Counted from the stretch's first letter, positions 5,839 through 59,037 are shown. The stretch is 64,000 nucleotides of DNA from an uncultured Clostridium sp. (GCA_948436975.1 CAOJJB010000001.1:14005-78004); one strand, 5' to 3'. The notes: generated by a model not told the origin, from the sequence alone. Translations and numbers: made by a program.

Positions 5839-5914
<76 letters not shown>

Positions 5915-5948
5915 ATATATATAATTAACCATTCTTATTAAATAAAAG

Positions 5949-6024: not shown

Positions 6025-6055
6025 TACATTAAAGAATATCTAAAAAGATATTCTT

Positions 6056-6131: not shown

Positions 6132-6319
6132 ATAAGTTGTATGGCAATTGCTTAAAAGCAACTGCTTTTATATGATACACTATTTTTTTATACTTGTCAA
6201 CATTTTTTTTATATTTTTTATAAATTTTTGTATAATTATTAATTTAAAAGATTATATTTACTCAAAATCAATATATAATTATTATTTCCAATAACACTAA
6301 TATTATAACTTCAATTATA

Positions 6320-28255: not shown

Positions 28256-29209
28256 ATGAAATTATCACGTAATGAAAAATCACTTATATTTTCTAGTACA
28301 GAAATACCAGATATATTTTTTACCGAATACTTACCAGAAGCCTCTGGTAACTTTATAAAGGTATATTTCTATATGCTATTTTTATCAAAATACAATAAAG
28401 AAATCAAAATTAATGATTTATCAAAAACGTTATCTTTAGATTTTCCTACTGTACAAGATGCAATAAAATATTGGGAAGAAAAAGGCATTTTATTAAAAAA
28501 AACTGATGGTTATACATTATCAGATATTCAAGAATTAGAGATTACTAAATTATACTCACCTAAAGTAACATCCTCTCCAGAAGATGCTATAAAAAGTTCA
28601 CAGAGTCAATATAGAGCAAAAGCTATCGAAAATATTAATTCACAATTCTTTCAAGGTGTTATGTCCCCATCTTGGTATAATGATATAGATCTTTGGTTTA
28701 ACAAATATGGATTTGATGAGCAAGTTATGCTTGCATTATTTAGTTATGCTTATGATAAACGAGCTCTACATAGAAATTATATCCAAGCAACAGCGGACGC
28801 TTGGAGTAAAAATAATATAACTACTTTTAATGATTTAGAAGCTTATTTTGAAAAACAAGAAAAAAGAAATGTAATAAACAGTAAAATATCAAAAAAATTG
28901 AATTTATATAGAAAATTAACTACATATGAAGAAGAAGATATAGTTAAATGGACTGAAAATTATGGTTATGATATGGAAATTATTGAAATAGCCCTAAAAA
29001 AAGCTTCTTCAAATAATAAAGTTAGATTTGATTACATTGATACTTTATTAACAGATTGGCATAAAAAAGATTTCCATACTGTATCAGATGTTAATACTTA
29101 TCTTGACTCTATAAAAGACAAAGATAAGAAAACTAAACAAATAGAAAAAGCAGCATTTGAATATACACAAAGCACATTTGATAATTTAGAAGCATTATAT
29201 GATAATTAA
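28256..29209 (+). CDS. DnaD-domain replication initiation/primosome protein (DnaD/DnaB-like)
   Basis: N-terminal winged-helix-like region and C-terminal DDBH2 motif (ALFSYAYDKRALHRNYIQATADAWSKNNITTFNDLEAY). Confidence 0.75.
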   Translation: MKLSRNEKSLIFSSTEIPDIFFTEYLPEASGNFIKVYFYMLFLSKYNKEIKINDLSKTLSLDFPTVQDAIKYWEEKGILLKKTDGYTLSDIQELEITKLYSPKVTSSPEDAIKSSQSQYRAKAIENINSQFFQGVMSPSWYNDIDLWFNKYGFDEQVMLALFSYAYDKRALHRNYIQATADAWSKNNITTFNDLEAYFEKQEKRNVINSKISKKLNLYRKLTTYEEEDIVKWTENYGYDMEIIEIALKKASSNNKVRFDYIDTLLTDWHKKDFHTVSDVNTYLDSIKDKDKKTKQIEKAAFEYTQSTFDNLEALYDN

Positions 29210-29248
29210 AATATAGGATTTCCCTAAATATATTTAAAGGATGATAAA

Positions 29249-30274
29249 ATGAACAATTCTTTGTTAAAACAAATATTACATGAATATGATGAAAAAAGAA
29301 CTAAAGCTATATTAGAAATAGAAAATAGAAAAAAAGAATTAATGACTGTAAATCCTAGATTATTAGAAATTGAAGAAGAACTTTCTAAAAATTCTATACA
29401 AGCACTTAAAACTATACTTTTATCTAATGTCAAAGAAAAAGAAAAACTCTTATCTAATTTAAAAAAACAAAACAGTCATCTAATAAAAGAAAAAAATGAA
29501 TTTATAAAAAAAATATCTAAAGAAAACAATTACCTTAATCCACATTTTGAATGCAAATTGTGTAAAGATACTGGATATATAACAAAAAATTCTGAAACAA
29601 AAATGTGTTCATGTCTAAAACAAAAAATATTTGATATAGCTTATAATAAATCAAATATGGGCAATTTAGAAAGAGAGAATTTTTCTAATTTTAATATTCG
29701 CACATTTTCAGATAAATCAGATAAAGAAAAATATAAATCTGAAATTTCACCAAGAGAAAATATGAAAATTATTAGAGAAAAGGCTGAATTGTTTATATCA
29801 AATTTTGATAATCCAGAAGAAAAGAATTTAATATTTATAGGAAATACTGGAGTTGGTAAAACATTTTTAACTAATTGTATAGCTAATGAAGTATTAAAAC
29901 TAGGAAAAACTGTACTTTATCAAACAGCTCCTGTTATGTTTGATAAAATCAATAACGCAAAATTTGGAAAAGAAAATTCAAAATTTGATCTATATGAAAA
30001 TATATTAAATGTTGATTTACTAATAATAGATGATTTAGGAACAGAGAAAATTACTGATACCAAAATTACTGAATTATTTACAATTATTAACACGCGATTA
30101 CTTAATCAAAATCATAAAATAACTAAAACCATTATTTCTACAAATTATAATGTTGATGAACTTTTTAAAACATATACAACTAGAATTGGTTCTCGTTTAG
30201 CAGGAAATTATAGATTTTTAAGATTTTTTGGAGATGATTTAAGATTTAAAAAGAATAAAAATGAAGCAATTTAA
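29249..30274 (+). CDS. DnaI/DnaC-like helicase loader (IstB-like AAA+ ATPase with N-terminal zinc-ribbon)
   Basis: Zinc-binding CKLCKDTGY...CSC, Walker A GNTGVGKTFL and Walker B LLIIDDLG. Confidence 0.8.
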   Translation: MNNSLLKQILHEYDEKRTKAILEIENRKKELMTVNPRLLEIEEELSKNSIQALKTILLSNVKEKEKLLSNLKKQNSHLIKEKNEFIKKISKENNYLNPHFECKLCKDTGYITKNSETKMCSCLKQKIFDIAYNKSNMGNLERENFSNFNIRTFSDKSDKEKYKSEISPRENMKIIREKAELFISNFDNPEEKNLIFIGNTGVGKTFLTNCIANEVLKLGKTVLYQTAPVMFDKINNAKFGKENSKFDLYENILNVDLLIIDDLGTEKITDTKITELFTIINTRLLNQNHKITKTIISTNYNVDELFKTYTTRIGSRLAGNYRFLRFFGDDLRFKKNKNEAI

Positions 30275-31008: not shown

Positions 31009-31074
31009 TTTATCTCCATTAACCTCTATAAAATTTGGAGTGCAAAAGCACTCCAAAATTAATGTTTATATAAA

Positions 31075-33507
31075 TTATTCTTCATTTTCCTCAGTAATAG
31101 TTTCTATACTTACTACTTTGCCATCATTTGTTCTCATTAAAGTAACTCCTTGTGTTGATCTTCCAAGAACACTTATTTCTCCTGTATTCATTCTTATTAT
31201 AGTTCCAGTATCTGTTATAAGCATTACATCTTCTGTTCCATCTACAATTTTTATACCTACAATTTCTCCTGTTTTAGGTGTTATTTTATAAGTTATTACT
31301 CCATGTCCACCTCTATTTTGAACTCTATATTCATCTAATTCTGTTCTTTTTCCAAATCCATTTTCTGTTATAGCTAATAATGTTGCTTTGCTACCTGTTA
31401 TAATTGGTTCCATTCCAACTACATAATCCCCATCACTAATTCTCATTCCAATTACACCTTGTGCTGTTCTTCCTACTGGTCTAACATCTTTTTCATCAAA
31501 TGTTATACTCATACCTTTTCTTGTTACTAATACAACATTGTCTTGTCCATCTGTCATTCTTACATCAATAAGTTCATCATCTTCTTTTAAAGTTATTCCC
31601 ATTAAACCATTTTTTCTATTAGAATCATATTCTTTTAATGATGTCTTTTTAATTAAACCTGATTTTGTAGCCATTAATAAATATTTACCTTCAGCAAAAT
31701 TTTGAATTGGAATAATTGCAGAAATTTTTTCTCCACCTTCTAAATTCAACAAATTTACTATTGCTGTACCTTTTGCAGTTCTACCTGCCTCTGGTATTTC
31801 AAATCCACGTAATCTATACATCTTTCCTTTATTACTAAAAAATAATATTGTATCATGTGTAGAAGCTGTAAATATTTCTTTAACAAAGTCATCTTCTCTT
31901 GTAGCAATTCCTGTAATTCCTTTTCCACCTCTTTTTTGGCTTTTATAAGTATCAATTGGCATTCTTTTTATATATCCAAAATGAGTTAATGCAATTACTG
32001 TTTGTTCTTCTTTTATTAGATCTTCTTCTTCAAATTCTCCTTCTGCTGGAGCTATTTTTGTTAGTCTTTCATCACCAAATTTATCTCTTATTTCTGTAAG
32101 TTCTGTTTTTATAATATCAAAAACTAAAGTTTCACTTGATAATATTTCTTTATAATAAGCTATTAATTTCATCAATTCTGCATATTCTTCTTCTAGTTTT
32201 TCTCTTTGTAAACCAGATAATCTTTTTAATTGCATATCTAATATTGCTTGTGCTTGTATATCTGTAAGCTTAAATCGTTCCATTAATCTTTCTTTTGCAT
32301 CATCATAAGATTCACGAATTATTTTAATTACTTCATCTATATTATCGATAGCAATTATTAATCCTTCTAATATATGTGCTCTTGCTTCTGCTTTATCTAA
32401 ATCAAATTTTGTTCTTCGTAAAACAACTTCTCTTCTATGTTTTATATATTCTTCTAAACATTCTTTTAAAGTAAGTATTTTAGGTTCACCATTCACTAAT
32501 GCAAGCATTATAACTCCAAAAGTGTCTTGCATTTGTGTATGCTTAAATAATTGATTTAATATAACTTGTGGTCTTGCATCTCTCTTTAATTCAATTACTA
32601 TTCTTACTCTTTCTTTTCTATCTGATTCATCTCTAACTTCTGAAATACCTTCTATTCTCTTATCTTTTACTAATTCATCTATTTTAATAATTAAATTTGC
32701 TTTATTAACTTGATATGGTAATGATGAAACAATAATTCTTTGTCTATTTCCAGACATTTCTTCGATTTCAGTTTCTGCTCTTACTGTTATTTTACCTCTA
32801 CCTGTTGTATATGCTTGTCTTATTCCTTCTTTTCCTAATATTAATGCTCCAGTTGGAAAGTCTGGCCCCTTTATAACTTGCATCAATTCTTCATTTGTTA
32901 CATTATCATCATCAATTACTTTTATTGTTCCATCAATTATTTCTCTTAAATTATGAGGTGGTATATTAGTTGCCATACCAACAGCAATACCTGAGGAACC
33001 ATTTATTAATAATGCTGGTATTTTAGATGGAAGAACTGTTGGTTCTTGAAGTCTATCATCATAATTTGGCATAAAATCTACTGTATTTTTTTCTATATCT
33101 ACTAACATTTGCTCTGCAATTTTTGCCATTCTAGATTCTGTATACCTCATTGCAGCTGCTCCGTCTCCATCTATTGACCCAAAGTTACCATGTCCATCTA
33201 TTAACATATATCTCATAGAAAAATCTTGTGCTAATCTTACCATAGCATCATATACAGATGAGTCCCCATGTGGATGATATCTTCCTAAAACTGACCCAAC
33301 TGTATTAGCACATTTTCTATAAGGTTTATCTGATGTTATTCCATCCTCATGCATAGAATAAAGAATTCTTCTATGTACTGGTTTTAAACCATCTCTAACA
33401 TCTGGTAAAGCACGTGAAACTATAACACTCATTGCATAATCTATATATGCATCTTTCATTTCTTTTTCTATATTTCTTTCAATTATTTTTCCATCTTGCC
33501 TATCCAT
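31075..33507 (-). CDS. gyrA: DNA gyrase subunit A
   Basis: 810 aa. The [26 protein letters not shown] region contains the QRDR, with the active-site Tyr region and C-terminal beta-pinwheel repeats. Confidence 0.95.
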
Positions 33508-33616
33508 TTATTACCCTCTTTTCTTATATTTCTTTCCTATTGCATTATATAAAAATATATGAAAAAATGCAAGAAAAACGCTAAATTTTTATGTGTTTTT
33601 TCCTTTTATTTTTAAT

Positions 33617-34330
33617 CTATATTTTTTGTGCTAACTCCATTTCTAAACTACTAATATTAAAATTGTTTCCATTATTTTTTATTAAATTTTGAATATTTTC
33701 AATTTTTCTAGATTTATCTATTACTGTTTCTAAAGGTACTATTTTATTTAAATTATTTTTTATGTTCTTATAGCATTTTTCCATTAATTCTAAATCTTTT
33801 TTATTATATGCTATATCCCAATTTTCACAATATTGCTCTAATTTCTCAACTGCTTTTAATTGTCTTGTTAATGTTTCTTCTATATTATTACTTATAGAAT
33901 TTATTATTGTATTTTTACCATTTTTTAACATATATGATGTGGATTTATTTATTAAATTCTTATTAGTTGCTAATTTTATACTATAATCTAACAATTCTGA
34001 AATATTATCTAATATACCTCCTTTTTTTACCGCAAGTTGTATTTGAGATATATTTTCAAAATTTCCTGTTATTATTCCCATGATACTTTTTCCTGTATTT
34101 ATACTAGAATTTATTACTTGCTTTATTCCTTCTGAAAAACCATTTTCTAATATTGCATTTTTTACATCTATTATTTGATCTTCAATAATATCTGGTAATA
34201 GAGCTTTTAATCCTATATCTATTGCTGAATTTATTGTTTTTCCTAAATTACTTTGCAAAAAATTTTGTTGCAATTCAATTAGTTTGTTATTTTTCATTTC
34301 TATATTATTTTCTAAAATCATATCATTCAT
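33617..34330 (-). CDS. hypothetical hydrophilic protein with internal repeats (GK[TS]I...I)
   Basis: 237 aa with no TM helix. Co-oriented with the T4SS-like ATPases inside the gyrB-gyrA insertion. Confidence 0.4.
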   Translation of the reverse strand: MNDMILENNIEMKNNKLIELQQNFLQSNLGKTINSAIDIGLKALLPDIIEDQIIDVKNAILENGFSEGIKQVINSSINTGKSIMGIITGNFENISQIQLAVKKGGILDNISELLDYSIKLATNKNLINKSTSYMLKNGKNTIINSISNNIEETLTRQLKAVEKLEQYCENWDIAYNKKDLELMEKCYKNIKNNLNKIVPLETVIDKSRKIENIQNLIKNNGNNFNISSLEMELAQKI

Positions 34331-34365
34331 ATTTATTATCCTTTCACTTATTTTTTTATTTTAAT

Positions 34366-35610
34366 TTATAATTTTTCATATATTTTTTTATATTCGTCAT
34401 CAAAAATTAAATTATTCAAATTTTTATTAATAAACAAATTATATTTTTCATTATAATTAATATTTCCAAATAACTCATATTCAAAAAATATTTCTTTTAT
34501 AATATTTTTTGAAATATGATACTGATTTAATTTATTAAATAATAATTTAATTTTTTCATTTTCTATATTCCAATCTTTTTTATAAATTTCTAAAATTTTT
34601 TTCGCCTTTTTAATTTCTGATAAATTAGACTCTAATAAAAAAATTATTTTATTAGATAAATTTAAAATTCTTTCGATATAATTTAATTCAATATTAGAAG
34701 ATATATCTAATATTATAAAATCAAAGCTTTCTTTTATTTCACAAAAAAAATCGTTTAATTTATATAGTTCAACTTTATGTATTTTTGTTAATATTGAATC
34801 AAGTCCACACATTATGGAAAAATTATTACTAATATTATTTATTAAATAAACTAAATTATCTATATTAGTATTTTTATTACTATTTTTTAATCCTAATATG
34901 TATTTGATACTATTATTATTTATATCAAAATCTATTAATAAAACTCTTTTATTTTGTTGTTCTATATATTTAGATAAAATTAAAGAAACTATGCTTTTAC
35001 CAACTCCATAATTTCCTGATATAGTAATAATTTTATTATTAATAATATTGTTTTTATATTTTAAATCTAAATATTCCATATTTTTTTCAAATTTCTTTCC
35101 TACACTTTTATAATTTTCTTTAATTAATTTATTGTTTTTTTTTAATATTTTATTTTTATTTAAACAATCTTTTTTATTATAATTATTTAATTTATTATTT
35201 AAAATAAATTCTTTAAAATCCTTTATTTCATTAGTAATTTCGATTTTATTTTTTTCACTATTTATACAAAAATTATTTAAAAAAATATCATAATTATTTT
35301 GATTTAAATAATATATTTTATAAATATTTTTACTATTTAAAAAACTTTCTAAATATTCATTTTTTTCTTTTAAAAAAACTATTATTTCTATATTTTCTTT
35401 TTTATTTAAAATATTATTTATTAATATTTTAAAATCATATTCTATTGGTAAATTATTACTTAAAATTATTACATTAATATCTTCTTTTTCTTCTAAAATT
35501 TCTATTATTCCGTCTTGATATTGTATATCTTGTCCAATTACATCACAAATACCATATTGTCTAATTTTATTATTTAAGTATGGATCACCAATTGCTGTTA
35601 TTATTTTCAA
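34366..35610 (-). CDS. ParA/MinD/CpaE-like P-loop ATPase with receiver-like N-terminal domain
   Basis: N-terminal ~120 aa resembles a CheY-like or TadZ-type pseudo-receiver (MKIITAIGDP...INVIILSNNL). Central P-loop ITISGNYGVGKSIVS and A'-motif VLLIDFDINNNS are typical of the MinD/ParA/CpaE family. Confidence 0.5.
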   Translation of the reverse strand: MKIITAIGDPYLNNKIRQYGICDVIGQDIQYQDGIIEILEEKEDINVIILSNNLPIEYDFKILINNILNKKENIEIIVFLKEKNEYLESFLNSKNIYKIYYLNQNNYDIFLNNFCINSEKNKIEITNEIKDFKEFILNNKLNNYNKKDCLNKNKILKKNNKLIKENYKSVGKKFEKNMEYLDLKYKNNIINNKIITISGNYGVGKSIVSLILSKYIEQQNKRVLLIDFDINNNSIKYILGLKNSNKNTNIDNLVYLINNISNNFSIMCGLDSILTKIHKVELYKLNDFFCEIKESFDFIILDISSNIELNYIERILNLSNKIIFLLESNLSEIKKAKKILEIYKKDWNIENEKIKLLFNKLNQYHISKNIIKEIFFEYELFGNINYNEKYNLFINKNLNNLIFDDEYKKIYEKL

Positions 35611-37316
35611 CTAATTAATCCCTCCTCATTTTTAGAACATTCTATTTTAGCTAATATATGATTATCACCTATAAACATTAATGTTTCTCCCCTTTTTAAT
35701 GATTTTATTTCAATTTTTTCTTTTTCAGAAATATTAGCATATTTTTCTAATACCAATATATTTTCTTCTTCTAAAGAAAAAAAAGATTTTATACTAGAAT
35801 TATTTAATATACTTTTTCCATATGTTCCATTATCTAAACTAAATAAATCAGATACATCTTGTGTAATAGCTACTGCACTTCCACCATACTTTCTTATAGT
35901 TTTAAATATTTTGTAAATAAAACTTGCTACGAATTTATTTGATGTAATTCCTATTAATCTCCATATTTCATCTAAATAAATTGCTTTATTTTTATTTCTA
36001 TCTTTTTTTATTTTATCCCAAAATAATTCTATAAAAATATACATACCATATTTTAAATTCTCTTCTCCTAACTCATATATATCTGCTACTATAAGTTTAT
36101 TGTTTAATTCAATATTTGTATAATTATTTAAAAATTTTAAAGATCCAAATATAAATGGATATAATTTTCTTTTAAAAAACATTGTTTTTTCATCTTTTCC
36201 AAAAATATTATATAAATCTTCTAATATAGGCATTTGTTTACTATTTTTAAATTCTTTATCTTCATTATATAATGAATTATCGTCAAAATTTATTCCTTTT
36301 TCTTTATAGGTTTCTATTAATTTTTCTTCTAATAAAGCTACTTTTTCCTCATCTAACTCACCAAAAACTAAACTGAAAAACATTCTTAATTTACTAATTT
36401 TTGTGGTTAAAAAACCTTTTTCTTCTTCAATACTATCTTCTCTAATATCTAATATATTTATATAAGAATTAGAGGTAGGTCCAAATTTTATACAAACTCC
36501 ATCTAAACTATCACATATTTTTGTATATTCTCTTTCTGGATCTATTATATATTGATCTAGTCCAAATAATCTATATCTTAATATTAATAATTTAGTATAA
36601 AAAGATTTTCCTGCCCCACTAGTACCAAATATACATATATTTGCATTTTTATATTTTTCTTTATTGAATCTATCCACTAAAATCATTGAATTATTATAAA
36701 TATTTGTTCCTATAAAAATACCTGTATCATCACATAAATTAGATGAAATAAATGGATATGTTGATATCAAACCACTTCCTAAAATATTTCTTTTTGTTAT
36801 ATTTTTTATTTCTTTACTATTATTCATTAAAGGTAAACATGCATTATATATTTGTTCTTGTCTAAAATTTCCTTTTCTTGTCATCATTCCTGAGGCTTGA
36901 AGTAATCCCTCTATTTTATTTAAATTTCTTTCCATTTCTTTTTCATTTTCAGAAATAATATTTATATATGTATATAAAAAATATAATTCTTCATTATTTA
37001 CTTGCATTTCTTTCCTTATATATTTGGCATCGTTGTATGTATATGCTGCTATATCTATATCCTCTCTATTTTCATTTCCAGATTTTAAATCTACTCCAAC
37101 ATTTCCAATATAATATGTTAAATCTTTTATAGTTTTATATGTATCTTGTTTTTCATAAAATACAGATATATTCATATTTACATTTGTATTTATTATATTT
37201 TTAAATATAATATCATTATATTCTCTATAATAATCAATAATTAAAATTCCACAATAATATTTACCATCTATTTCTAAATATTTAGGATTTTTATTATTTA
37301 TATAACTCGGTGCCAT
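35607..37316 (-). CDS. VirB4/TrsE/TcpF-like conjugative transfer ATPase (AAA_10-like domain), C-terminal two-thirds
   Basis: N-terminal YLEIDGKYYCGILIIDYY pattern, Walker A CIFGTSGAGKSFYTKL, IIDPEREY, Walker B YLDEIWRL and VAITQD motifs characteristic of Gram-positive VirB4 homologs. Only 569 aa, versus the usual ~800. Confidence 0.6.
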   Translation of the reverse strand: MAPSYINNKNPKYLEIDGKYYCGILIIDYYREYNDIIFKNIINTNVNMNISVFYEKQDTYKTIKDLTYYIGNVGVDLKSGNENREDIDIAAYTYNDAKYIRKEMQVNNEELYFLYTYINIISENEKEMERNLNKIEGLLQASGMMTRKGNFRQEQIYNACLPLMNNSKEIKNITKRNILGSGLISTYPFISSNLCDDTGIFIGTNIYNNSMILVDRFNKEKYKNANICIFGTSGAGKSFYTKLLILRYRLFGLDQYIIDPEREYTKICDSLDGVCIKFGPTSNSYINILDIREDSIEEEKGFLTTKISKLRMFFSLVFGELDEEKVALLEEKLIETYKEKGINFDDNSLYNEDKEFKNSKQMPILEDLYNIFGKDEKTMFFKRKLYPFIFGSLKFLNNYTNIELNNKLIVADIYELGEENLKYGMYIFIELFWDKIKKDRNKNKAIYLDEIWRLIGITSNKFVASFIYKIFKTIRKYGGSAVAITQDVSDLFSLDNGTYGKSILNNSSIKSFFSLEEENILVLEKYANISEKEKIEIKSLKRGETLMFIGDNHILAKIECSKNEEGLIS

Positions 37317-37362
37317 TTTATCCTTAATATTTAATACTCCATCATAAAAATTGCTTATATTA

Positions 37363-37839
37363 TCACTCTCCTAACTCTTTTATTTTTTCTTTTAAATTGG
37401 GGTTAAAAAAAGAATTTAAAATCTTTTCTGTTTCTTTTTTTGAATTAACATCATAAACAATATTTCCACATCTTGATAATGATTCTTTTACTTTGAAAAA
37501 ACTTTCATTTAAAAAGTTAATTGCTATGTTTTCATTTACATAATTTTCAGATGCTTCTAAATTATATTTTATAATTATATAAAAATTTTTTGAGGATGAT
37601 TTATTCTCTTCATTTTTATCTTGAATAAACTCAATATATTTTTCGGTTATATCTTTTATTTTTTTATTTTCTTCGTTTTTGGAAATTTTTTTTAGATTTA
37701 CAAAATGTTTTGATAAATTTTCTTTTTTACTTTGAATAAGTATTTGAATATTAAAATCACAAGTTTTTAAAAATAATTTAAAAGAATTTAAAATAGCTTC
37801 TTTTTCTAAATCAGATTTTAAATAATAGTTAATTGGCAA
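37363..37839 (-). CDS. hypothetical 158-aa protein, possibly the detached N-terminal segment of the VirB4-like ATPase
   Basis: Lies 46 nt upstream of the VirB4-like ORF and co-oriented with it, in a different frame. The sizes sum to a typical VirB4 length, and IQILIQSKKENLSKHF resembles VirB4 N-terminal regions. Confidence 0.35.
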   Translation of the reverse strand: MPINYYLKSDLEKEAILNSFKLFLKTCDFNIQILIQSKKENLSKHFVNLKKISKNEENKKIKDITEKYIEFIQDKNEENKSSSKNFYIIIKYNLEASENYVNENIAINFLNESFFKVKESLSRCGNIVYDVNSKKETEKILNSFFNPNLKEKIKELGE

Positions 37840-38087
37840 GACTCTTATTATTTTTATATAAGATTGTTTACTTATTATAATACCATTTTCTAAAATATCA
37901 TCAAAAGGTATCCATGTTTGTGTTGTATTTTCTTTTTTTATCTAAATCTTCTCCTTTCTTAAATTTTGCTTATATTATAATACTTTTTTTATAAAGTCAA
38001 GATTTTTTTTATAAAAATAGACATATTTTGTTTCAAATATGTCTATTTCTATATTTAAAAAATATTTTTTACTCTCTTTTAATCTAA

Positions 38088-40223
38088 TTATATTGTATCA
38101 AATTCTAGTTCTACTTTGAATAAATCTCCATCTACTTTTAAATCAAATTTACCTTTTTGTAATTCTGTTAAACTTTTTGAAATAGATATTCCTAAACCAC
38201 TCCCTTCTGTTGTTCTAGATTTATCTCCTCTTACAAATCTTTGCATTAACTCATCTGGAGTAATATTTAATCTTTCTTTTGATATATTTTTTACTTCTAT
38301 TTTTACCTTTTTATTATTTTTATTTATATCAATATACACCCTTGAACTCTCTAAAGCATATTTTGATATATTGCTAAATATGTTTTCAATAATTCTATAC
38401 ATATATCTATTATCTGCATTTATAAAAATTTCTTTATCAGGAATATTAGATATTATTTCAAGTTTTTTCTCCTTAAATTTATCTTCAAATTCACCTGTTG
38501 TTTGTTTTATTAATTCACAAATATTTATTCTTTCTATATTTAATTTTACATTTCCAGAAGATGCTTTAGATGCTTCTACCAAATCCTCTGTTAATTTTTT
38601 TAATCTTTGAGATTTATTATCTAAAATTTCTATATATTCTTTTATTTTTTCATTTTCTATATTTTCTTTTTTTAATAAGTCCACATAATTAATAATTGAA
38701 GTTAAAGGAGTTTTTATATCATGAGAAACATTTGTTATTAATTCAGTTTTTAATTTTTCTGATTTAATTCCTTCTTCAATAGCGTTTTTAAATCCACTTG
38801 ATATATCATTAATATATTTTACAATCTCTTGAAATTCTGGAGTAAATTCTGATCTGTTTAATTTCGTACTATTATCTCCTTCATATATTTGTTTTAAATG
38901 TATCTCTATTTTTTTATAACAATTTATTCTTTCAACAAATTTATAAAAAATATAAGCTGATCCAATTAAAGCTATTACAAATCCAAAACCATTTAAAACT
39001 ATTATTAAAATAATTACACATATAAAATATAATATTATTCCACATATTAATTTTGAAGTTATATTCCATGAGTTTGTTGTTTCTTTAATAAATTTTCTTA
39101 ATTTATTTAAAATATTTGTTATTGTATTTAAACACCATTTATATATCTTTCCTGTTATACTTTCTTTTATTAATACTTTTGCTTTTATTCTTTTAATAGT
39201 TGTTATAGTCATTATTGCACATAATATATATGAAATGAAATATCCTGTTATAAAAAAGCTTACTAAAAAATTAAAATATTTTTCTGAAAAATAGCTCATA
39301 AATTCAAATATTACTGCTATAATTATTGATAATAGTATTATTCCTACTAAAAAGATTATTTCTATTGGTATTTTATCAAAATCATTTAAATCTATTCCTT
39401 CTTTTCCTTTTGTATGACCTATTGATATAATTAAATAAATACTAATTACTATTATTAAAATTGAACATATTGGAACAGCATATAAAAACTCATTTTCATA
39501 ATTATTCAAATTTATTATACTATTCCTTAAAAATATATCATCATTTGTTTCAACAACTTCTTCTACATAACTAGTGTATATTTGAAAATCTTCTATTTTT
39601 GTTGTATAAAATTCTTTTATATTACTATTAGAATTTATATTATTTACAATTATATCTTGCTCTATTTTTTCTGACTCATATTTTTGTATATCATTGTTTA
39701 TTGAATAGTAAGTTTCTTCAAAATCGTCATAATATTTTATTGCTTTATTTGAAATAATTTCTGATTCTGATTCTACATTACCATTTATTATATTTGTTTT
39801 TTTAGAATTTTGATTTGAAATATAATTCTTTATCTTTTCTACTGTATTTGTTTCTGCAGTCAATTCAACATTTGTTAAAGCTATATTTTTATATAAAATA
39901 ATATAATAATAATCTTTTATCTGTCTATAATATTGTTCATTTATATCGTTGTTATAACATATTTTAAAATCACCATCTTTTATGCTATTATAACTTTCAT
40001 TATTAAAAATTAAATTATAAGCTTGCCTTGATAATCTTGTCATATATTGATTTAAAAATTCTTCTGTTTGAAAAAAGGAAGAATCATATTTATTATATTC
40101 AATATATTCTTCTTTTTGTGTTAAATAAAATAAAGATATAATTAATGTTAATATTAGTATCGGTAATGTTATATAACTAATTAATCTTAAAATTCTATTT
40201 TCTCTCATATTTTTCTCCTTCAT
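38088..40223 (-). CDS. sensor histidine kinase with large extracytoplasmic sensing domain flanked by two TM helices
   Basis: HisKA (NVSHDIKTPLTSIINYVDLL) and HATPase_c (GSGLGISISKSLTELQKG). N-terminal TM then a ~230-aa Asn/Tyr-rich extracellular region, followed by a multi-TM segment. Confidence 0.85.
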   Translation of the reverse strand: MKEKNMRENRILRLISYITLPILILTLIISLFYLTQKEEYIEYNKYDSSFFQTEEFLNQYMTRLSRQAYNLIFNNESYNSIKDGDFKICYNNDINEQYYRQIKDYYYIILYKNIALTNVELTAETNTVEKIKNYISNQNSKKTNIINGNVESESEIISNKAIKYYDDFEETYYSINNDIQKYESEKIEQDIIVNNINSNSNIKEFYTTKIEDFQIYTSYVEEVVETNDDIFLRNSIINLNNYENEFLYAVPICSILIIVISIYLIISIGHTKGKEGIDLNDFDKIPIEIIFLVGIILLSIIIAVIFEFMSYFSEKYFNFLVSFFITGYFISYILCAIMTITTIKRIKAKVLIKESITGKIYKWCLNTITNILNKLRKFIKETTNSWNITSKLICGIILYFICVIILIIVLNGFGFVIALIGSAYIFYKFVERINCYKKIEIHLKQIYEGDNSTKLNRSEFTPEFQEIVKYINDISSGFKNAIEEGIKSEKLKTELITNVSHDIKTPLTSIINYVDLLKKENIENEKIKEYIEILDNKSQRLKKLTEDLVEASKASSGNVKLNIERINICELIKQTTGEFEDKFKEKKLEIISNIPDKEIFINADNRYMYRIIENIFSNISKYALESSRVYIDINKNNKKVKIEVKNISKERLNITPDELMQRFVRGDKSRTTEGSGLGISISKSLTELQKGKFDLKVDGDLFKVELEFDTI

Positions 40224-40224
40224 T

Positions 40225-40923
40225 TTAATTTATTTTTTCAATTTTATAGCCTATTCCCCATATTACTTTTAAATATTTAGGATCTTTTGGATTTATTTCA
40301 ATTTTCTCCCTTATATGTCTTATATGCACTGCAATTATATTCTCAGCAGCATAAGCTTCATCATCCCAAATATTTTGATATATTTGTTCAATTGAAAAAA
40401 CTATTCCTTTATTTTTAGTTAAAAATTTTAAAATATTATATTCTGTTGGTGTTAACTTTACTTCATTTCCTTCTACTACTACTTTTTTTAAATTATCATC
40501 TATTATAAGTTCCCCTGTTTTATATATATTCTGATTATCTTCATTTTCAAAATTTCCAAACTTTGTATATCTTCTTATTCCTGAATTTACTCTAGCTATT
40601 AATTCTAAAGGATTAAATGGTTTTGTTACATAATCATCAGCTCCAAGATTTAATCCTTTTATTTTATCTTCATCTTCTGATTTAGCTGAAAGCATTATAA
40701 CAGGAATTGATGTTTTTTTTCTAATTTCATTTAAAGTATCTATTCCATCTTTTTTGGGCATCATTATATCTAATATAACTAATTGAACTGTATTATTTTT
40801 TAAAACATCCAAAGCTTCTTCTCCATCATAAGATTTTAATACATTATATCCTTCCTTAGTTAAATAAATTTCAATTGCTTTTACTATTTCTTTGTCATCA
40901 TCACAAACTAAAATATTATACAT
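40225..40923 (-). CDS. OmpR/PhoB-family response regulator
   Basis: Receiver domain (LVCDDDKEI...LDIMMPKKDG...KSEDEDKIKGLNLGADDYVTKPF) and winged-helix output (IWGIGYKI). Its start overlaps the stop of the kinase by 1 nt. Confidence 0.9.
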   Translation of the reverse strand: MYNILVCDDDKEIVKAIEIYLTKEGYNVLKSYDGEEALDVLKNNTVQLVILDIMMPKKDGIDTLNEIRKKTSIPVIMLSAKSEDEDKIKGLNLGADDYVTKPFNPLELIARVNSGIRRYTKFGNFENEDNQNIYKTGELIIDDNLKKVVVEGNEVKLTPTEYNILKFLTKNKGIVFSIEQIYQNIWDDEAYAAENIIAVHIRHIREKIEINPKDPKYLKVIWGIGYKIEKIN

Positions 40924-41662
40924 TTTTTAACTCCTATCTTTAAAAAATAATTATTATGAAAATTATTATATCAATTTTTTTATTATTTTTAAAGTATTTA
41001 TATTATAACAAAAGATTATTAAGAAAAAATAGAGAATTTATTAAGAAATTATTAATTTAATATATTAGTTATTGTAAAACATTTTAGATATAAAATTTCC
41101 AAATTTTTCTATAAAATTTTTTGAATATTTTTTTTAAAATTAGTCATAATAATATTATAAAATTTATATTAGCCTAACTTAGATATAATTTTTATTAATA
41201 AGTTATTTATAAATAACTTATTACTGATAATTATTTCGAGTAAAGATATAATTTATTGAATGAAATCCATTTAGTAAATTATGTCGGTCACAAAGAGTAT
41301 ATTATGTGCTTGATAGTTCTTTAACTTAACAATTTTTTTCTAATATAAATAAAGGATTTGAAAAGTATGTAATATATTTGAAGTTATGATTATTCTTTTA
41401 TTCAAAAGTGGTTATTTATAATCCTTTTTAGGACGAATATAGCTATTTCGAGTGGATTTATAGTCTAGCAACTGATTAGTATATGTGGTATATGGCTTAC
41501 TTGTATAGTAATATACATTAGGTCAGACTACTATGTATATTAGTTTTAGCTGAAAGTTAATATAAGTTTTATCATGATAAATGCCATAAAGTGTATTCTT
41601 TATGGCATTATCAATTTTATTCAGTTTAATTTATATTTGTTAAATTTTATATAAAATAGTAT

Positions 41663-43591
41663 CTATATATCTAAATTTTTTACATATTTAGCGTTTTGCT
41701 CTATAAATTCTCTTCTTGGATTTACTTCATCTCCCATTAACAATGAAAATACTGAATCTGCTGATATAGCATCATCCATTGTTACTTTTACTAATGTTCT
41801 TGTTTCTGGATTCATTGTAGTTTCCCAAAGTTGTTCTGGATTCATTTCTCCTAATCCTTTATATCTTTGTATTCCTAATTGATCTCGTGATATTCCTTTT
41901 TCTTCTAATATTTTAAATTGTTTATCTAAATCTTCATCTGTATAACAATATATATCTTCCATTCCTTTTTTAGATAACTTAAATAGAGGTGGTTGTGCTA
42001 AATATACATTTCCATTTTCTATTAATGGTCTCATATATCTAAAGAAAAATGTTAATAATAATGTTCTTATATGTGCTCCATCAACATCTGCATCAGCCAT
42101 TATTATTACTTTTCCATATCTTATTTTTGTTATATCAAAATCTGGTCCTATACCTGCTCCTACTGCTAATATTACAGGATTTAATTTATCATTTCCATAT
42201 ATTTTATCAGCTCTTGCTTTTTCAACATTTAACATTTTTCCCCATAATGGAAGAATTGCTTGAAATTTTCTATCTCTTCCTTGTTTTGCACTACCTCCAG
42301 CTGAATCCCCTTCTACTATATATACTTCACATTCTTCTGCTATTTTACTACTACAATCTGCTAATTTTCCAGGAAGTGTTGATGTTTCTAATGATGTTTT
42401 TTTCCTTGCAAGTTCTCTAGCTTTTCTTGCTGCTTCTCTTGCTCTTGAAGCACTGATACATTTTTCCAATATAGATTTTGCTATATTAGGATTTTCTTCT
42501 AAAAAATTAGATAAGTGTTCATTCATCATAGATTGTACAACACCTGTAACTTCACTATTTCCTAATTTAGTTTTAGTTTGTCCTTCAAATTGAGGTTCTT
42601 TTACTTTTACTGATATAACTGCTGTTATTCCCTCTCTTATATCATCTCCTACTAAATTAGCATCTTTTTCTTTTAGTATATTTTTACTTCTAGCATAATC
42701 ATTAAATACTTTTGTTAATGATCTTTTAAAACCTTCTAAATGAGTTCCACCTTCTATTGTATTTATATTATTTACAAAAGTATAAATATTTTCTGAATAA
42801 CTTGTTGTATATTGTATAGCTATTTCTACAGGATATTCTCCATCTTTTTCTATGTATATTGGTTGAGGATGTAATTTTTCTTTATTTCTATTTAGATATT
42901 CAACAAAAGAATTTAATCCACCTTCAAAGCAAAATTGTGCTTTTCTTGGTACTTCTTCTCTTAAATCTTCTATTTCTATATTTAATCCTTTTGTTAAAAA
43001 TGCCATTTCTCTAAATCTGTTTTCTAATACTTCATATTCATAATCCAAAGTTTCAAATATTGTACTATCTGCAAAAAATCTAACTTTAGTTCCTGTTTTT
43101 TCAGAATCTCCAATTCTTTCAAGAGTTTTTACTGTTTTACCTCTTTCAAAACTCATTTGATAAATTCCACCATCTCTTTGAATTGTTACTTCTGTCCATT
43201 CTGATAAAGCATTAACTACTGATGAACCAACACCATGTAGTCCTCCTGATACTTTATAACCACTATCTCCTCCAAATTTTCCTCCAGCATGTAAAACAGT
43301 ATAAACTGTTTCTGCTGCTGATAATCCTGTTTTTGCATGTTTATCAATTGGAATACCTCTACCATCATCTTCAACACATATTATATTACCTGGTTCTATT
43401 TTTATATTTATATTTTTACAATATCCTGCTAAAGCTTCATCAACTGCATTATCTACTATTTCATAAACTAAATGATGCAATCCTCTAACAGAAACACTTC
43501 CTATATACATTCCTGGCCTTTTTCTTACAGCTTCTAATCCTTCTAATACTTGTATTTGATCTGCTTTATATTCATGTTCATACTTTTCCAT
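41663..43591 (-). CDS. gyrB: DNA gyrase subunit B
   Basis: GHKL ATPase motifs ([21 protein letters not shown]), TOPRIM (EGDSAGG) and a C-terminal tail. 642 aa. Confidence 0.95.
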
Positions 43592-46459: not shown

Positions 46460-47806
46460 TTAATTAGAGTCTTGAATAATGTTTTTCACACTTTCCACAA
46501 TTAATTTTGTGTTTGTTTTTTCTTTTATTTCTTTTTCTATTTTATTTACGGCATGCATAACTGTAGTATGATCTCTATTTCCGAAATCAGCTCCAATTTT
46601 AGGAAAAGACATTTGAGTTATTGTTCTGCAAAGATACATTGCTATTTGTCTTGGATATGCAATATCATTTGATTTTTTTGAAGAAATTAAATCTTTTTTA
46701 TCAATATTAAAATATTTTGATACTACTTCTTGTATATAATCAGCAGAAATTACTTTTTCTTTTTGAAGTACAATATCATTAATAGATTTTTCAGCTATTT
46801 CTATTGTTATTTGACTATGTGTTAATGCAGCATAAGCTACTATTTTATTTAATGCACCTTCTAATTCTCTTATGTTTGAATCTACTTTTGTTGCAATAAC
46901 AGATAATATATAGTCATCTATTAATATTTTATCAGCTTGTACTTTTTTTCTGAGTATAGCTAAACGTGTTTCATAATCTGGCATAGATATATCAGCAAGT
47001 ATTCCCCATTCAAATCTAGATTTTAGACGTTCTTCTAATAAAGGAATATCTCTAGGTGGTTTATCACTAGAAATTATTATTTGTTTTCCATTTTGATGTA
47101 AACTATTAAATGTATGAAAAAATTCTTCTTGACCAGTCTTTTTTCCAGCTATAAATTGAATATCATCTATTAGTAAAACATCTATATTTCTATATTTGTT
47201 TCTAAATAATTCATTTTTATAATTAGCATCTTTTATTGAGTTTACTAATTCATTAATAAATTTTTCAGATGTTACATATAAAACTTTTGTATTAGGATTA
47301 TTTTGTATTATTTTATTTCCTATTGCATGCATTAAATGAGTTTTACCAAGTCCTACTCCACCATAAATAAATAATGGATTATAAGCTGTTGCAGGAGATT
47401 CTGAAACAGCATATGCAGCAGCTTGTGCAAATTTATTATTATTTCCTATTACAAAGTTATCAAAAGTATATTTTGGATTTAAAAAACTATTTGTGTAGTT
47501 TTCAGTTTTTACAAAATTTGTTTCTTTTTCTTCTTCAAAATTATTTTGATTTTTTTCTGTTTTTTCTATAATTTCTATTTCGCAATTTTTATTAGTTATA
47601 AAATTAAATGTGTTACAAACTAAATCAAATAATCTTGATTCTATAGCATCTTTTTGCATTTTTGAAAGTGCTACTAAAACAATTTTATTATCATTTATAT
47701 ATTGTATTTCTAAATTTTTAATCCATGTTGTATATGAAATAGTAGTCATCTCTTCTTTTAAAAGATCTTTTACTTTTGTAAGTAAGTCATTCTTATCAGA
47801 ATACAT
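46460..47806 (-). CDS. dnaA: chromosomal replication initiator DnaA
   Basis: AAA+ Walker A GGVGLGKTHL, sensor motifs and a C-terminal DnaA-box-binding HTH. 448 aa. Confidence 0.95.
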   Translation of the reverse strand: MYSDKNDLLTKVKDLLKEEMTTISYTTWIKNLEIQYINDNKIVLVALSKMQKDAIESRLFDLVCNTFNFITNKNCEIEIIEKTEKNQNNFEEEKETNFVKTENYTNSFLNPKYTFDNFVIGNNNKFAQAAAYAVSESPATAYNPLFIYGGVGLGKTHLMHAIGNKIIQNNPNTKVLYVTSEKFINELVNSIKDANYKNELFRNKYRNIDVLLIDDIQFIAGKKTGQEEFFHTFNSLHQNGKQIIISSDKPPRDIPLLEERLKSRFEWGILADISMPDYETRLAILRKKVQADKILIDDYILSVIATKVDSNIRELEGALNKIVAYAALTHSQITIEIAEKSINDIVLQKEKVISADYIQEVVSKYFNIDKKDLISSKKSNDIAYPRQIAMYLCRTITQMSFPKIGADFGNRDHTTVMHAVNKIEKEIKEKTNTKLIVESVKNIIQDSN

Positions 47807-55438: not shown

Positions 55439-56233
55439 TTGGGAAGAGTAATATCAATTGCTAATCAGAAAGGTGGGGTAGGTAAAACTACGACTGCAGT
55501 AAATTTAAGTACGATATTGGCAAAAAGAGGAAAAAAAGTAATAATAGTAGATGCTGATCCTCAAGGGAATGCATCTAGTGGATTAGGATTAGAAAGAGTA
55601 ACTGAAAATTCTTTGTATGACATTTTGATTAATGATGTAAAAATAGAAGATACTTTACAAAGTGCTTGTATTAAAAATCTGAAAGTATGTCCTTCAAATA
55701 TGGATCTTGCAGGTGCAGAAGTAGAATTAGTTTCTCAAATGTCAAGAGAACAGAGATTAAAAGAAAAAGTAGATGAGATAAAAGATAATTATGATTTTAT
55801 AATTATAGATTGTCCACCATCATTAGGATTAATTACTTTAAATGCTTTTACTGCATCAGATTCTGTTCTAATACCTGTACAGTGTGAATATTTTGCTTTA
55901 GAAGGTTTGGGGCAGTTACTAAATACAATAAATTTAGTAAAAAAACATTTAAATAAGAACTTAGAAGTTGAAGGTGCTGTACTTACTATGTATGATATTA
56001 GGACGAATCTTTCAAATCAAGTTGTTAAAGAGGTAAAAAGGTATTTTGGTGATAAAGTTTATAAAACTGTAATTCCTAGAAATATAAAGCTTAGTGAAGC
56101 GCCGAGTTATGGTCTACCAATTACTTTATATGATGCTAAATCTAAAGGTGCTAGATCTTATGAGAAACTTGCTAGAGAAGTATTAAATAATGATATAATT
56201 AGAAAAAGAGAAGTATTAAAAAAGGAGGAATAA
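55439..56233 (+). CDS. soj: chromosome partitioning ATPase ParA/Soj
   Basis: Deviant Walker A ANQKGGVGKTTTAVNL. 264 aa. Confidence 0.9.
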   Translation: MGRVISIANQKGGVGKTTTAVNLSTILAKRGKKVIIVDADPQGNASSGLGLERVTENSLYDILINDVKIEDTLQSACIKNLKVCPSNMDLAGAEVELVSQMSREQRLKEKVDEIKDNYDFIIIDCPPSLGLITLNAFTASDSVLIPVQCEYFALEGLGQLLNTINLVKKHLNKNLEVEGAVLTMYDIRTNLSNQVVKEVKRYFGDKVYKTVIPRNIKLSEAPSYGLPITLYDAKSKGARSYEKLAREVLNNDIIRKREVLKKEE

Positions 56234-56235
56234 AC

Positions 56236-57081
56236 ATGACAGGCAAAAAAACAGGATTAGGAAAAGGTTTAGATGCGTTGTTTAGTACACCAATGGTTGA
56301 GGAAATTACTAGAGAAGAAGATATTGTAAAAAAATTGAAAATTAATGAAATAGAACCAAACAAAGGACAAGCAAGAAAAGTTTTTGATGATGAAGCTATT
56401 GAAGATTTATCTAATTCTATAAAAGAATATGGAGTAATACAACCTATAATAGTAAGCAAAAAAGTAGGATATTATGAAATTATAGCAGGTGAAAGAAGAT
56501 GGAGAGCATCTAAAAGAGCAGGATTAGATGAAATTCCAGCAATAGTAAGAGATGATGATGAACAAAGAAATCAAGAAATTTCTTTAATAGAAAATATACA
56601 AAGAGAAGACTTAAATCCTATAGAAAAAGCTAGAGGAATAAAAACATTAATGGATGAATATAGCTTAACTCAAGCACAAGTTGCTGAAAAATTAGGAAAA
56701 AGTAGAAGTAGTATAGCAAATACAGTAAGAATATTAAATTTAGATGAAAGAGTAATAAATTTAGCTTTAGAGGGAAAACTAACAGAAGGACATTGTAAAT
56801 CATTAATGGCTATTGATGATCATGATAAACAATATCAAATGGCTACTTATATAATTGAATCAGGGGATTCTGTTAGAGAAGCTGAAAAGAAAATGAAAGT
56901 AATTAAAAAGGTAAACAAAAAAAATGATAGATACATACCAATCTATAGGGATATAGAAAATACATTTCAAGGTTTTTTTGGTACAAAAGTAAAGCTAGAT
57001 GCTGGAGAAAGAAAAGGCAAAATAATAATACAATACAGCTCTAATGATGATTTAGAGAGAATTTTAGGTTTAATAAAATAA
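56236..57081 (+). CDS. spo0J: chromosome partitioning protein ParB/Spo0J
   Basis: ParB box GERRWRASKRAGL, HTH region and a C-terminal dimerisation region. Confidence 0.9.
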   Translation: MTGKKTGLGKGLDALFSTPMVEEITREEDIVKKLKINEIEPNKGQARKVFDDEAIEDLSNSIKEYGVIQPIIVSKKVGYYEIIAGERRWRASKRAGLDEIPAIVRDDDEQRNQEISLIENIQREDLNPIEKARGIKTLMDEYSLTQAQVAEKLGKSRSSIANTVRILNLDERVINLALEGKLTEGHCKSLMAIDDHDKQYQMATYIIESGDSVREAEKKMKVIKKVNKKNDRYIPIYRDIENTFQGFFGTKVKLDAGERKGKIIIQYSSNDDLERILGLIK

Positions 57082-58908: not shown

Positions 58909-59001
58909 GGAGATTTACCCAAGTGGTTGAAGGGGACGGTTTGCTAAACCGTTAGGGTTGCGTAAGTGGCCGCGAGGGTTCAAATCCCTCAATCTCCGCC
59001 A
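58909..59001 (+). tRNA. tRNA-Ser (anticodon GCT), long variable arm, CCA encoded
   Basis: GGAGATT acceptor pairs with AATCTCC. Anticodon stem-loop ACGGT-TTGCTAA-ACCGT, extra arm, T-loop GGTTCAAATCC. Confidence 0.85.
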
Positions 59002-59002
59002 A

Positions 59003-59037
59003 AAAAATCTAAAGTTTATATAGCTTTAGATTTTTTT
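59003..59037 (+). terminator. rho-independent terminator after the tRNA-Ser pair
   Basis: atctaaag...ctttagat 8-bp stem followed by T7. Confidence 0.6.

Follow-up and report, generated by a model that had tools for sequence, protein, structure and literature searches.

The DNA between the gyrase genes gyrB and gyrA, together with a second gene cluster beyond gyrA, was analyzed in a contiguous stretch of 64,000 nucleotides (nt) from an uncultured Clostridium sp. (GCA_948436975.1, CAOJJB010000001.1:14005-78004; this whole stretch is hereafter the window, and positions are counted from its first letter). The window covered the origin region of a very low-GC Bacillota genome (23.7% GC), with a change of sign of the GC skew at about 47-48 kb. 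On the (-) strand, dnaA (46460-47806) was followed by dnaN, recF, a RemA-like gene, gyrB, six co-oriented open reading frames (ORFs) and gyrA. A type IV secretion system (T4SS)-like apparatus was encoded in two clusters flanking gyrA, one on the (-) strand (VirB4N, VirB4C, a TadZ-like ATPase and the 237-aa protein p237) and one on the (+) strand (a coupling protein and pilin, VirB6-like and VirB3-like candidates).

The upstream flank of the block was gyrB (41663-43591, (-) strand, a 642-aa ORF with HATPase_c, DNA_gyraseB, Toprim and DNA_gyraseB_C domains), which was followed by a 12-bp hairpin. From gyrB to gyrA, all on the (-) strand, came an OmpR-family, VanR-like response regulator (40225-40923), a sensor histidine kinase (38088-40223), VirB4N (37363-37941), VirB4C (35607-37316), the TadZ-like ATPase (34366-35610) and p237 (33617-34330). 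gyrA itself (31075-33507, (-) strand, an 810-aa ORF with DNA_topoisoIV and DNA_gyraseA_C domains) sat between both halves of the secretion genes and was associated with a terminator hairpin (31034-31057); no terminator was detected between the p237 gene and gyrA. An earlier prediction made from the nucleotide sequence of the window (hereafter the original prediction) had described gyrB and gyrA as separated by six co-oriented genes, which ORF coordinates and content confirmed.

VirB4C (569 aa) was a VirB4-family ATPase, in agreement with the original prediction. Hidden Markov model (HMM) searches returned P-loop_TraG (71.7 bits) and AAA_10 (43.2 bits) from Pfam, and the NCBIfam VirB4 model CD1110 over model positions 192-731 (260 bits, for a curated cutoff of 325). 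A VirB4C profile matched the VirB4 C-terminal domain (PDB 4ag5) with an E-value of 1.2e-47, and the Walker A (GTSGAGKS) and Walker B (DE) motifs were intact and invariant. The preceding gene, first read as a 158-aa ORF (37363-37839), was in fact a frame of 192 open codons (37363-37941) that matched positions 1-170 of CD1110 (E 1e-8), and its counterpart in one relative carried PF26593 TraC-like. As VirB4N and VirB4C covered the same model, the two proteins together make up one complete VirB4. The earlier idea of one split conjugation ATPase was correct in that both ORFs matched a single VirB4 model, but the split was a conserved two-gene arrangement rather than a pseudogene.

The two VirB4 genes were separate ORFs in every locus compared (described below), in relative frames 0, 1 and 2 and with gaps of 0 to about 1500 nt, so that neither a fresh pseudogene nor a programmed frameshift accounts for the arrangement. 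A programmed frameshift considered at the VirB4N/VirB4C junction (GGAGAG-TGA) was rejected on these grounds of frame and spacing. Within the window and its closest relatives (loci L001, L010, L011, L013 and L018), no ATG, GTG or TTG preceded the conserved N-terminus of VirB4N (37840-37945 in the window). GGAG followed by 9 nt and ATA was found at the start region of VirB4N and upstream of the VirB4C frame, and a non-canonical start codon may be used for VirB4N.

The 414-aa TadZ-like ATPase gave CbiA (42.9 bits), ParA and AAA_31 matches, with a CbiA/ParA/MinD P-loop domain at residues 190-394 by HMM. In its AlphaFold2 (AF2) model, of mean predicted local distance difference test (pLDDT) 76.6, a variable and disordered linker joined a flavodoxin/receiver-like domain (residues 1-101) to the P-loop domain (190-414); the receiver-like domain was the best-conserved part of the protein. 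When the model was searched against known structures, the only two-domain, full-length match was 3fkq (E 2.4e-9, 450 aligned columns, 13% identity), a two-domain protein of Eubacterium rectale that we take to be the published TadZ structure, and the C-terminal domain matched MinD, ParA and FlhG structures. The predicted fold thus has the TadZ/CpaE architecture, an atypical receiver joined to a MinD/ParA fold, and the earlier reading of a ParA/TadZ-like ATPase with a receiver-like N-terminus was supported by the CbiA/ParA matches, the AF2 model and 3fkq. Identity as a ParA partition ATPase (KGGxxK[ST] motif with a cognate ParB) was rejected: the P-loop read SGNxGxGKS, without the ParA/MinD signature lysine, and all ParA/MinD equivalog scores were far below cutoffs. 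A canonical Soj/ParA and Spo0J/ParB pair was encoded elsewhere in the window (55439-57081), and the 414-aa protein is therefore not the chromosomal ParA. No tad locus genes (tadA/cpaF, tadB, tadC, flp) were detected in the window or in the relatives' loci.

The last gene before gyrA, p237, encoded a soluble protein predicted to be all-helical. It gave no Pfam, NCBIfam or PADLOC match and no transmembrane (TM) helix, and none of its 1681 homologues was annotated. Its AF2 model was of low confidence (pLDDT 57.6) and returned uninformative fold matches. p237 was nonetheless a conserved partner in the cassette (see below).

The second cluster comprised four (+)-strand genes (24886-28123) located beyond a dnaD/dnaI pair, and was first noticed through a coupling-protein-like gene in the contig annotation. 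This gene (24886-26611) coded for a type IV coupling protein, VirD4/TraD-like, with TraG-D_C (32 bits) and TrwB_AAD_bind (28.3 bits) both above cutoff, and its N-terminal piece contained two TM helices and the Walker A motif GTIGTGKT. A 1-nt insertion right after Walker A, near 25320-25335, broke the gene into two ORFs (24886-25341 and 25280-26611). The same frameshift was present in a second, independent assembly (L086/L087), whereas the coupling protein of relatives was a single in-frame ORF of 573-590 aa, reading ...YPFT[KR]QLI.Y... The coupling protein was therefore intact in relatives and frameshifted in the window, and the role of the machine in this species is probably independent of it.

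Downstream of the coupling protein gene followed a 109-aa VirB2-like T4SS pilin candidate (26608-26937) with a signal peptide and hydrophobic segments, a 292-aa polytopic VirB6-like candidate (26952-27830) with 5-6 predicted TM helices, and a 93-aa VirB3/PrgI-like membrane protein (27842-28123) with predicted TM helices and no Pfam match of its own. The matches of the pilin candidate to PF18895 T4SS_pilin (E 2.8e-4, 21.3 bits for a cutoff of 26.6) and to TrbC/VirB2 (E 3.6e-3) fell short of threshold, and the 292-aa protein matched neither Pfam nor named VirB6/PrgH models. Identities to relatives were 51-96% for the pilin candidate and 42-78% for the VirB3/PrgI-like protein. All four genes were kept in 35/35 loci with enough flanking sequence, the most distant included.

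The nearest plasmid VirB4 (34.6% identity) was found on pMM35_02 of Vescimonas fastidiosa, in a typical Firmicute T4SS locus with a 942-aa PrgI-VirB4 fusion, and profiles built from the lineage's own proteins were searched against this locus. The pilin-family profile matched the plasmid 'fimbrial protein' (E 1.2e-5), and the profile of the 292-aa family matched an unannotated 236-aa membrane protein encoded beside the plasmid pilin gene (E 2.3e-9). The 93-aa family matched residues 40-99 of the fusion, its PrgI part (E 2.8e-6), VirB4N matched residues 128-289 (E 4e-26) and VirB4C residues 340-923 (E 8e-105). This co-linear mapping onto the fusion indicates that VirB3, VirB4-N and VirB4-C each have a gene of their own in the lineage, the first of them being located on the far side of gyrA from the other two. 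By profile match and predicted TM helices, the 93-aa protein is thus the VirB3/PrgI-like partner. No counterpart of the TadZ-like ATPase or p237 was obtained in the Vescimonas plasmid T4SS locus by profile search.

Between both clusters, and convergent with gyrA, lay genes for a DnaD/DnaB_2-domain protein and a DnaI/DnaC-like AAA+ loader (NF005304, 345 bits; 28256-30274, (+) strand). The position of this pair was kept across the lineage; housekeeping loaders and an origin from an ancestral element are both possible.

Relatives of VirB4C were sought in one genome per GTDB species, which yielded at least 429 stretches encoding one. The best 80 of these were 67-89% identical to VirB4C and all came from metagenome-assembled genomes of uncultured gut Clostridia ('Candidatus Scatovivens' included) from rabbit, mouse, roe deer, chicken and human. 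Among thousands of VirB4C homologues, the best 120 clusters were 71-100% identical, of similar or shorter length and free of any N-domain fusion, and their contigs shared the same neighbourhood.

Window proteins were then mapped onto 85 loci selected through VirB4. The recurring order was dnaA-dnaN-recF-gyrB-VirB4N-VirB4C-(ParA-like)-p237-gyrA-...-dnaI/dnaD, with gyrB upstream in 66/85 loci and gyrA downstream in 55/85, the remainder being mostly truncated contigs. Clustering of the ORFs of the interval gave as core families VirB4C (82 loci), the TadZ-like ATPase (73), VirB4N (69) and p237 (58). Across 33 distant genomes (DnaA less than 70% identical to that of the window), mean identities to the window were 84.8% for GyrB, 81.1% for GyrA, 73.1% for DnaN, 69.6% for VirB4C, 64.0% for DnaA, 58.7% for RecF, 53.7% for VirB4N and 46.3% for p237. 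As VirB4C stood above DnaA and RecF, its rate of evolution is as low as that of core replication proteins.

The original prediction regarded the interval as an insertion between gyrB and gyrA, and suggested a synteny comparison with relatives. The core gene order was common among them, including in genomes with DnaA identities of 61-66%; as the same order was kept between gyrB and gyrA in most relatives, the interval is an ancestral feature of the lineage and the idea of an insertion was abandoned. The core cassette, placed between gyrB and gyrA or immediately upstream of gyrA, is ancient, strongly conserved and common to hundreds of species of uncultured gut Clostridia.

The description of the block as ultra-AT-rich was valid in relative terms only (18.9% GC, against 23.7% for the window). 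GC at third codon positions (GC3) was the same in block genes (0.063-0.105) as in housekeeping genes (0.056-0.132), and the lower overall GC of the block was due to codon positions 1 and 2. The cassette genes are under purifying selection of housekeeping level and native in composition.

Two kinds of local variation were observed around the cassette. In a rearranged subclade (L005, L020, L021, L023, L025 and L027-L032; e.g., L005 4539-9974), gyrB did not adjoin the cassette. Upstream of VirB4N and the spacer RNA described below were genes for a DUF87/TrwB-like ATPase of another kind (about 526-633 aa), for a 235-aa protein rich in Cys and for a glycosyltransferase, and the usual coupling-protein gene beside the pilin gene was missing. 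The stretch directly upstream of gyrA, from the TadZ-like/p237 genes onward (loci L006-L085), was an insertion hot spot, occupied by 1.5-5 kb of unrelated genes differing by genome (e.g., L067 12969-13967, L015 13764-15002, L041 6864-8330). Its contents, identified by eye without HMM, included an Rpn/YhgA-like nuclease, XRE regulators, prepilin-like proteins, pyruvate:ferredoxin oxidoreductase subunits, polynucleotide phosphorylase and methyltransferases; inspection of these variable genes for an effector or toxin theme gave none, and they were miscellaneous.

The two-component system showed another distribution. The response regulator (Response_reg 111.6 bits, Trans_reg_C 84.6 bits) was of OmpR type and the kinase carried HisKA and HATPase_c, as originally predicted for both. 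Their scores in NCBIfam fell below the cutoffs for VanR (273.8 bits, cutoff 350) and VanS (156.2 bits, cutoff 400, C-terminal half only), so that the pair belonged to the OmpR and HisKA families and not to VanRS by these cutoffs. Five TM helices were predicted in the kinase, and those at 14-32 and 250-410 bracketed a segment of about 217 aa predicted outside, in line with the large extracytoplasmic sensor announced earlier. Both genes were found in 9/83 loci, all within the subclade of the window, with 55-59% identity for the kinase among the loci carrying it. Being limited to these loci, the two-component pair is the only part of the block that behaves as a later insertion.

Mobility genes were searched in the scanned ORFs of the window and in the annotated loci of relatives, where no relaxase (MOB) and no integrase matched; the lack of an integrase in the block, part of the original prediction, was borne out by these HMM scans. 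A search for attachment (att) or direct repeats at 33400-41720 gave only chance matches in AT-rich low-complexity sequence, none of them flanking the block. A relaxase, an integrase, att repeats, foreign composition and patchiness, as expected from a conjugative element, were therefore not found in the sequences covered.

The spacer of 739 nt between gyrB and the response regulator gene, originally described as 740 bp of non-coding DNA, was indeed devoid of protein genes, but it held a predicted structured RNA gene of about 460 nt on the (+) strand (41121-41618), as displayed by covariation, folding energy and a promoter and terminator of its own. The promoter-like elements TTGAAT (41121-41126) and ATAATA (about 41146-41151) were conserved in the alignment as TTGAAT-N17-ATAATA. 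They preceded a folded body (about 41158-41571) in which pairing of the 5' and 3' ends (P1) would enclose five stems. A terminator hairpin at 41580-41609, with a T-run behind it, differed in sequence in every genome, with the pairing always kept.

In about 75 of the 85 loci the spacer was 67-80% identical at the DNA level, with column conservation of up to 0.8-0.9 and no 3-nt periodicity. RNAalifold gave -85.7 kcal/mol on the (+) strand (covariation term -19.6), with 115 pairs of which 86 showed compensatory double changes, against -1.23 kcal/mol on the gene-sense strand. A helix search retrieved 41 candidate helices on the (+) strand and 3 on the gene-sense strand; a reading of the spacer as a DNA-level element, drawn from the structureless sense strand, was dropped after this asymmetry. 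In pairing controls, 95.9% of cells were paired, compared to 81.4% in shuffles and 36-47% with slid partners, and none of 500 shuffles reached the observed value on any measure. Folded alone, the window sequence reproduced the consensus at -141.5 kcal/mol (shuffles -81.2 +/- 4.2, z = -14.3), with z = -3.7 for the other strand.

None of the 4227 Rfam models matched the spacer at gathering threshold (whole window) or at E<=5 (40850-41700). RNase P, transfer-messenger RNA (tmRNA), signal recognition particle RNA and 6S RNA were rejected as identities, none fitting by conserved motifs and architecture; ARAGORN detected no tmRNA and Rfam was negative. Several large structured bacterial RNAs have no assigned function (OLE, ROOL, GOLLD, raiA). 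The spacer RNA resembled them in its length of several hundred nt, its multi-stem fold with conserved junctions, its covariation and its own promoter and terminator, and differed from them by the lack of an Rfam match, by being limited, in the sampling covered, to this Clostridia lineage and by a fixed position convergent with gyrB. On sequence grounds it qualifies as a strong candidate for a class of large structured RNAs not described before; few RNAs of this kind are known to us, none with a settled function.

Because the 85 loci had been selected through VirB4, metagenome contigs were scanned independently with a hand-built pattern of three blocks derived from the RNA. All of the 120 matches were genuine RNA copies. 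gyrB was convergent on the 3' side in 97/100 informative loci, and VirB4N/C were divergent on the 5' side in 70/77. The RNA stayed beside VirB4N in the subclade without an adjacent gyrB, and two exceptions displayed the RNA by gyrB without secretion genes (L094 3427-9805, L194 282-4470), next to a citrate transporter, LysR and MatE genes in one case, or a SecY-family protein, an AraC-type response regulator and a DEAD-box helicase in the other. These counts and exceptions make the RNA a stable member of the syntenic block, and a joint function with the secretion genes is not proven by them. A much more distant genome (L124, RNA at 35-217, and 375-6460; DnaA 45%, DnaN 37% and RecF 41% identical) also carried the RNA beside gyrB, so its range may exceed the lineage sampled through VirB4.

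The gyrB-gyrA interval probably encodes half of a T4SS-like apparatus of the MPF_FATA kind that is fixed in the chromosome, vertically inherited, devoid of a relaxase and core to a large lineage of very low-GC gut Clostridia. A domesticated secretion-like system at the origin was one of the alternatives put forward in the original prediction, and it was favoured by conservation, by native composition and by the failure to find a relaxase, integrase or att repeats. Given that no relaxase or integrase was found, together with vertical inheritance and constraint of housekeeping level, the machine likely serves the cell and has ceased to transfer a mobile element.

By analogy with known systems, a translocon energised by VirB4N and VirB4C would have its membrane platform built from the VirB3-like and VirB6-like proteins, and the pilin candidate would build a surface fibre. 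Positioning or docking of the machine could fall to the TadZ-like protein, in the way that TadZ acts on Tad pili. The Patescibacteria T4SS suggests that the whole may serve cell-to-cell contact or the exchange of macromolecules rather than the transfer of a mobile element. Its substrate might be protein or DNA, or there might be none if the role was purely adhesive.

The closest parallel was the chromosomal T4SS of Patescibacteria (Candidate Phyla Radiation), which is derived from MPF_FATA, relaxase-less and often located beside dnaA/dnaN (Quinonero-Coronel et al. 2025, PMC12102498). It comprises VirB2-like pilins, TrsD, VirB3/PrgI-like and VirB6-like proteins, with VirB8 mostly undetectable; in one strain epibiotic growth requires this system but not its coupling protein (PMC12102498). 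In monoderm T4SSs of the pGO1 subclass, TrsD is encoded on its own as a homologue of the N-terminal part of VirB4; it is the commonest T4SS component in Patescibacteria and essential in the single strain tested (PMC12102498). The Clostridia gene set was likewise related to MPF_FATA, relaxase-less and origin-proximal, with a separate TrsD-like protein (VirB4N) and candidates for VirB2-, VirB3- and VirB6-like genes. By this comparison it has the features of the Patescibacteria type (chromosomal and origin-proximal location, no relaxase, a TrsD-like protein and a pilin, the latter below threshold in Pfam). It differed by its Bacillota host, by two convergent clusters around gyrA, and by the TadZ-like ATPase and p237, neither of which is mentioned for Patescibacteria (PMC12102498).

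Conjugative MPF_FATA systems (CTn2/CD1110, pGO1 with TrsC-TrsD-TrsE, and pMM35_02) were similar through the CD1110 score of 260 bits, the match to 4ag5 and the counterparts in the plasmid locus. The lineage departed from them by an identity of at most 34.6% to any plasmid VirB4, by a vertical core rather than mobile distribution, by VirB3, VirB4N and VirB4C being three genes instead of the one fusion of pMM35_02, and by the absence nearby, among the genes found, of a relaxase, an integrase, a VirB8-like protein or a C39/CHAP-type hydrolase such as that of the plasmid. The TadZ-like protein shared with TadZ/CpaE of Tad (Flp) pili a receiver-like N-domain and an ATPase domain of MinD/ParA fold, and was unlike them in its 13% identity to 3fkq, its SGNxGxGKS P-loop, its pairing with VirB4 and the lack of tad/flp genes nearby.

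Several observations weigh against a complete chromosomal secretion apparatus. The lineage is uncultured and the apparatus is known from sequence. The coupling protein is broken in the species of the window itself, and a minority subclade has a rearranged locus with gyrB non-adjacent. The pilin, VirB6-like and VirB3-like labels derive from sub-threshold Pfam matches or profile matches to one plasmid (E 1e-5 to 2e-9). The activity of the TadZ-like ATPase is uncertain because the ParA signature lysine is absent, and p237 has no recognisable fold. A relaxase could lie elsewhere in the genome, beyond the window and the annotated loci covered. Neither a VirB8-like protein (PrgL/TraM/TcpC) nor a VirB1-like hydrolase was detected among window ORFs by Pfam or NCBIfam, nor did the annotated loci of relatives show one; detection of VirB8 from sequence is known to be poor in monoderms (PMC12102498).

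An apparatus of this kind would matter in several respects. To our knowledge, T4SSs of Firmicutes are described almost only from conjugative plasmids and integrative and conjugative elements, and no description of a gyrase-flanking secretion locus or of the spacer RNA was found in the literature searched. A relaxase-free T4SS that has become fixed chromosomally, with an essential gene between its halves, and that is more tightly conserved than DnaA across hundreds of uncultured species from the guts of humans, mice, rabbits, ruminants and chickens points to an important non-conjugative function in an abundant and unstudied part of the gut microbiota. It would extend the idea of a domesticated origin-proximal T4SS, described for Patescibacteria, to a classical monoderm phylum. 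Its layout around gyrA is unusual, and it adds two uncharacterised partners, the TadZ-like ATPase and p237.

Among other explanations, it is unlikely that the gene set takes up or exchanges DNA, in the manner of ComB of Helicobacter pylori or of Ced in archaea, instead of delivering protein or mediating adhesion. ComB is a non-conjugative DNA-handling T4SS-like machine, and the Clostridia system shares with ComB and Ced, by description, a chromosomal, relaxase-independent VirB4-family ATPase accompanied by polytopic and small membrane proteins. Although relaxase-less, the lineage kept VirB4, the VirB6-like and pilin candidates and, in most species, a coupling protein of DNA-binding type (TrwB_AAD_bind), and the cluster lies among genes of DNA transactions (gyrB, gyrA, dnaD/dnaI, pcrA). 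Ced and competence-gene neighbourhoods are cited as precedents for non-conjugative DNA-handling T4SSs (PMC12102498). However, the conserved cluster contained no competence (comEC, comF, dprA) or recombination genes, this species at least can do without the coupling protein, and the replication-gene neighbourhood may merely reflect a position near the origin. ComB and Ced moreover have experimental phenotypes of DNA import, whereas the Clostridia system is known from its genes.

An extended version of the secretion-apparatus reading appears rather improbable. The cassette would then be an essential, lineage-defining machine for contact or exchange, the Bacillota counterpart (possibly sister or source) of the epibiotic T4SS of Patescibacteria, with the spacer RNA as a functional component acting as regulator, scaffold or cargo. 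Such a role for the RNA would be a first, no other large structured RNA being known to be linked to type IV secretion.

A role in chromosome handling, with a VirB4-like ATPase of the FtsK/HerA superfamily and a ParA-like ATPase acting at the origin in segregation or with gyrase, is very unlikely. The location between gyrB and gyrA by oriC and the ParA/MinD fold of the 414-aa protein would suit such a role, but the window already encodes the canonical Soj/Spo0J pair, and the 414-aa protein has a TadZ architecture and lacks the signature lysine. Its partners are membrane and pilin proteins typical of T4SSs, and the VirB4C profile matches the VirB4 C-terminal domain itself.

The decayed integrative element of the original prediction, that is, a recent or decaying integrative or conjugative element between gyrB and gyrA with VirB4 in pseudogene fragments, is highly improbable. 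The AT-richness of the block relative to its neighbours, VirB4 in two ORFs of different frames, the frameshifted coupling protein and a CD1110 score under the curated cutoff could all be taken for decay. Yet the same order was observed in dozens to hundreds of species, down to DnaA identities of 61-66%, VirB4C was more conserved than DnaA and RecF, and the split was universal and used all frames. GC3 was that of core genes, no integrase, relaxase or att repeat was found, and the nearest plasmid homologue was distant.

Finally, an anti-phage defence system (MADS- or Dnd-like) with a HerA/VirB4-like ATPase at its core has next to no probability. The PADLOC matches that would suggest it (mad8, E 1.2e-22, and DndH, E 7.7e-7, for VirB4C; weak mad8 for the coupling protein) are confined to the P-loop domain that these ATPases share, PADLOC returned nothing for the other four proteins, no methyltransferase or nuclease partners accompany them, and defence systems are patchy rather than core and syntenic.

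Some further features were observed in the rest of the window. ORFs without a Pfam match were found at 19879-21582 ((-) strand, 567 aa, adjoining pcrA), 19444-19824 ((+) strand, 126 aa), 14579-15247 ((-) strand, 222 aa) and 7369-7758 ((+) strand, 129 aa). A SpoIIR gene (11697-12311, (+) strand; Spore_II_R, E 6e-49) suggests that the sporulation programme is at least partly retained in the organism. The region 59000-62000, which lies downstream of two tRNA-Ser genes and carries an AAA_14/DUF4143 ATPase gene at 60408-61808, fell to 15-19% GC, a dip in composition as strong as in the gyrB-gyrA block.

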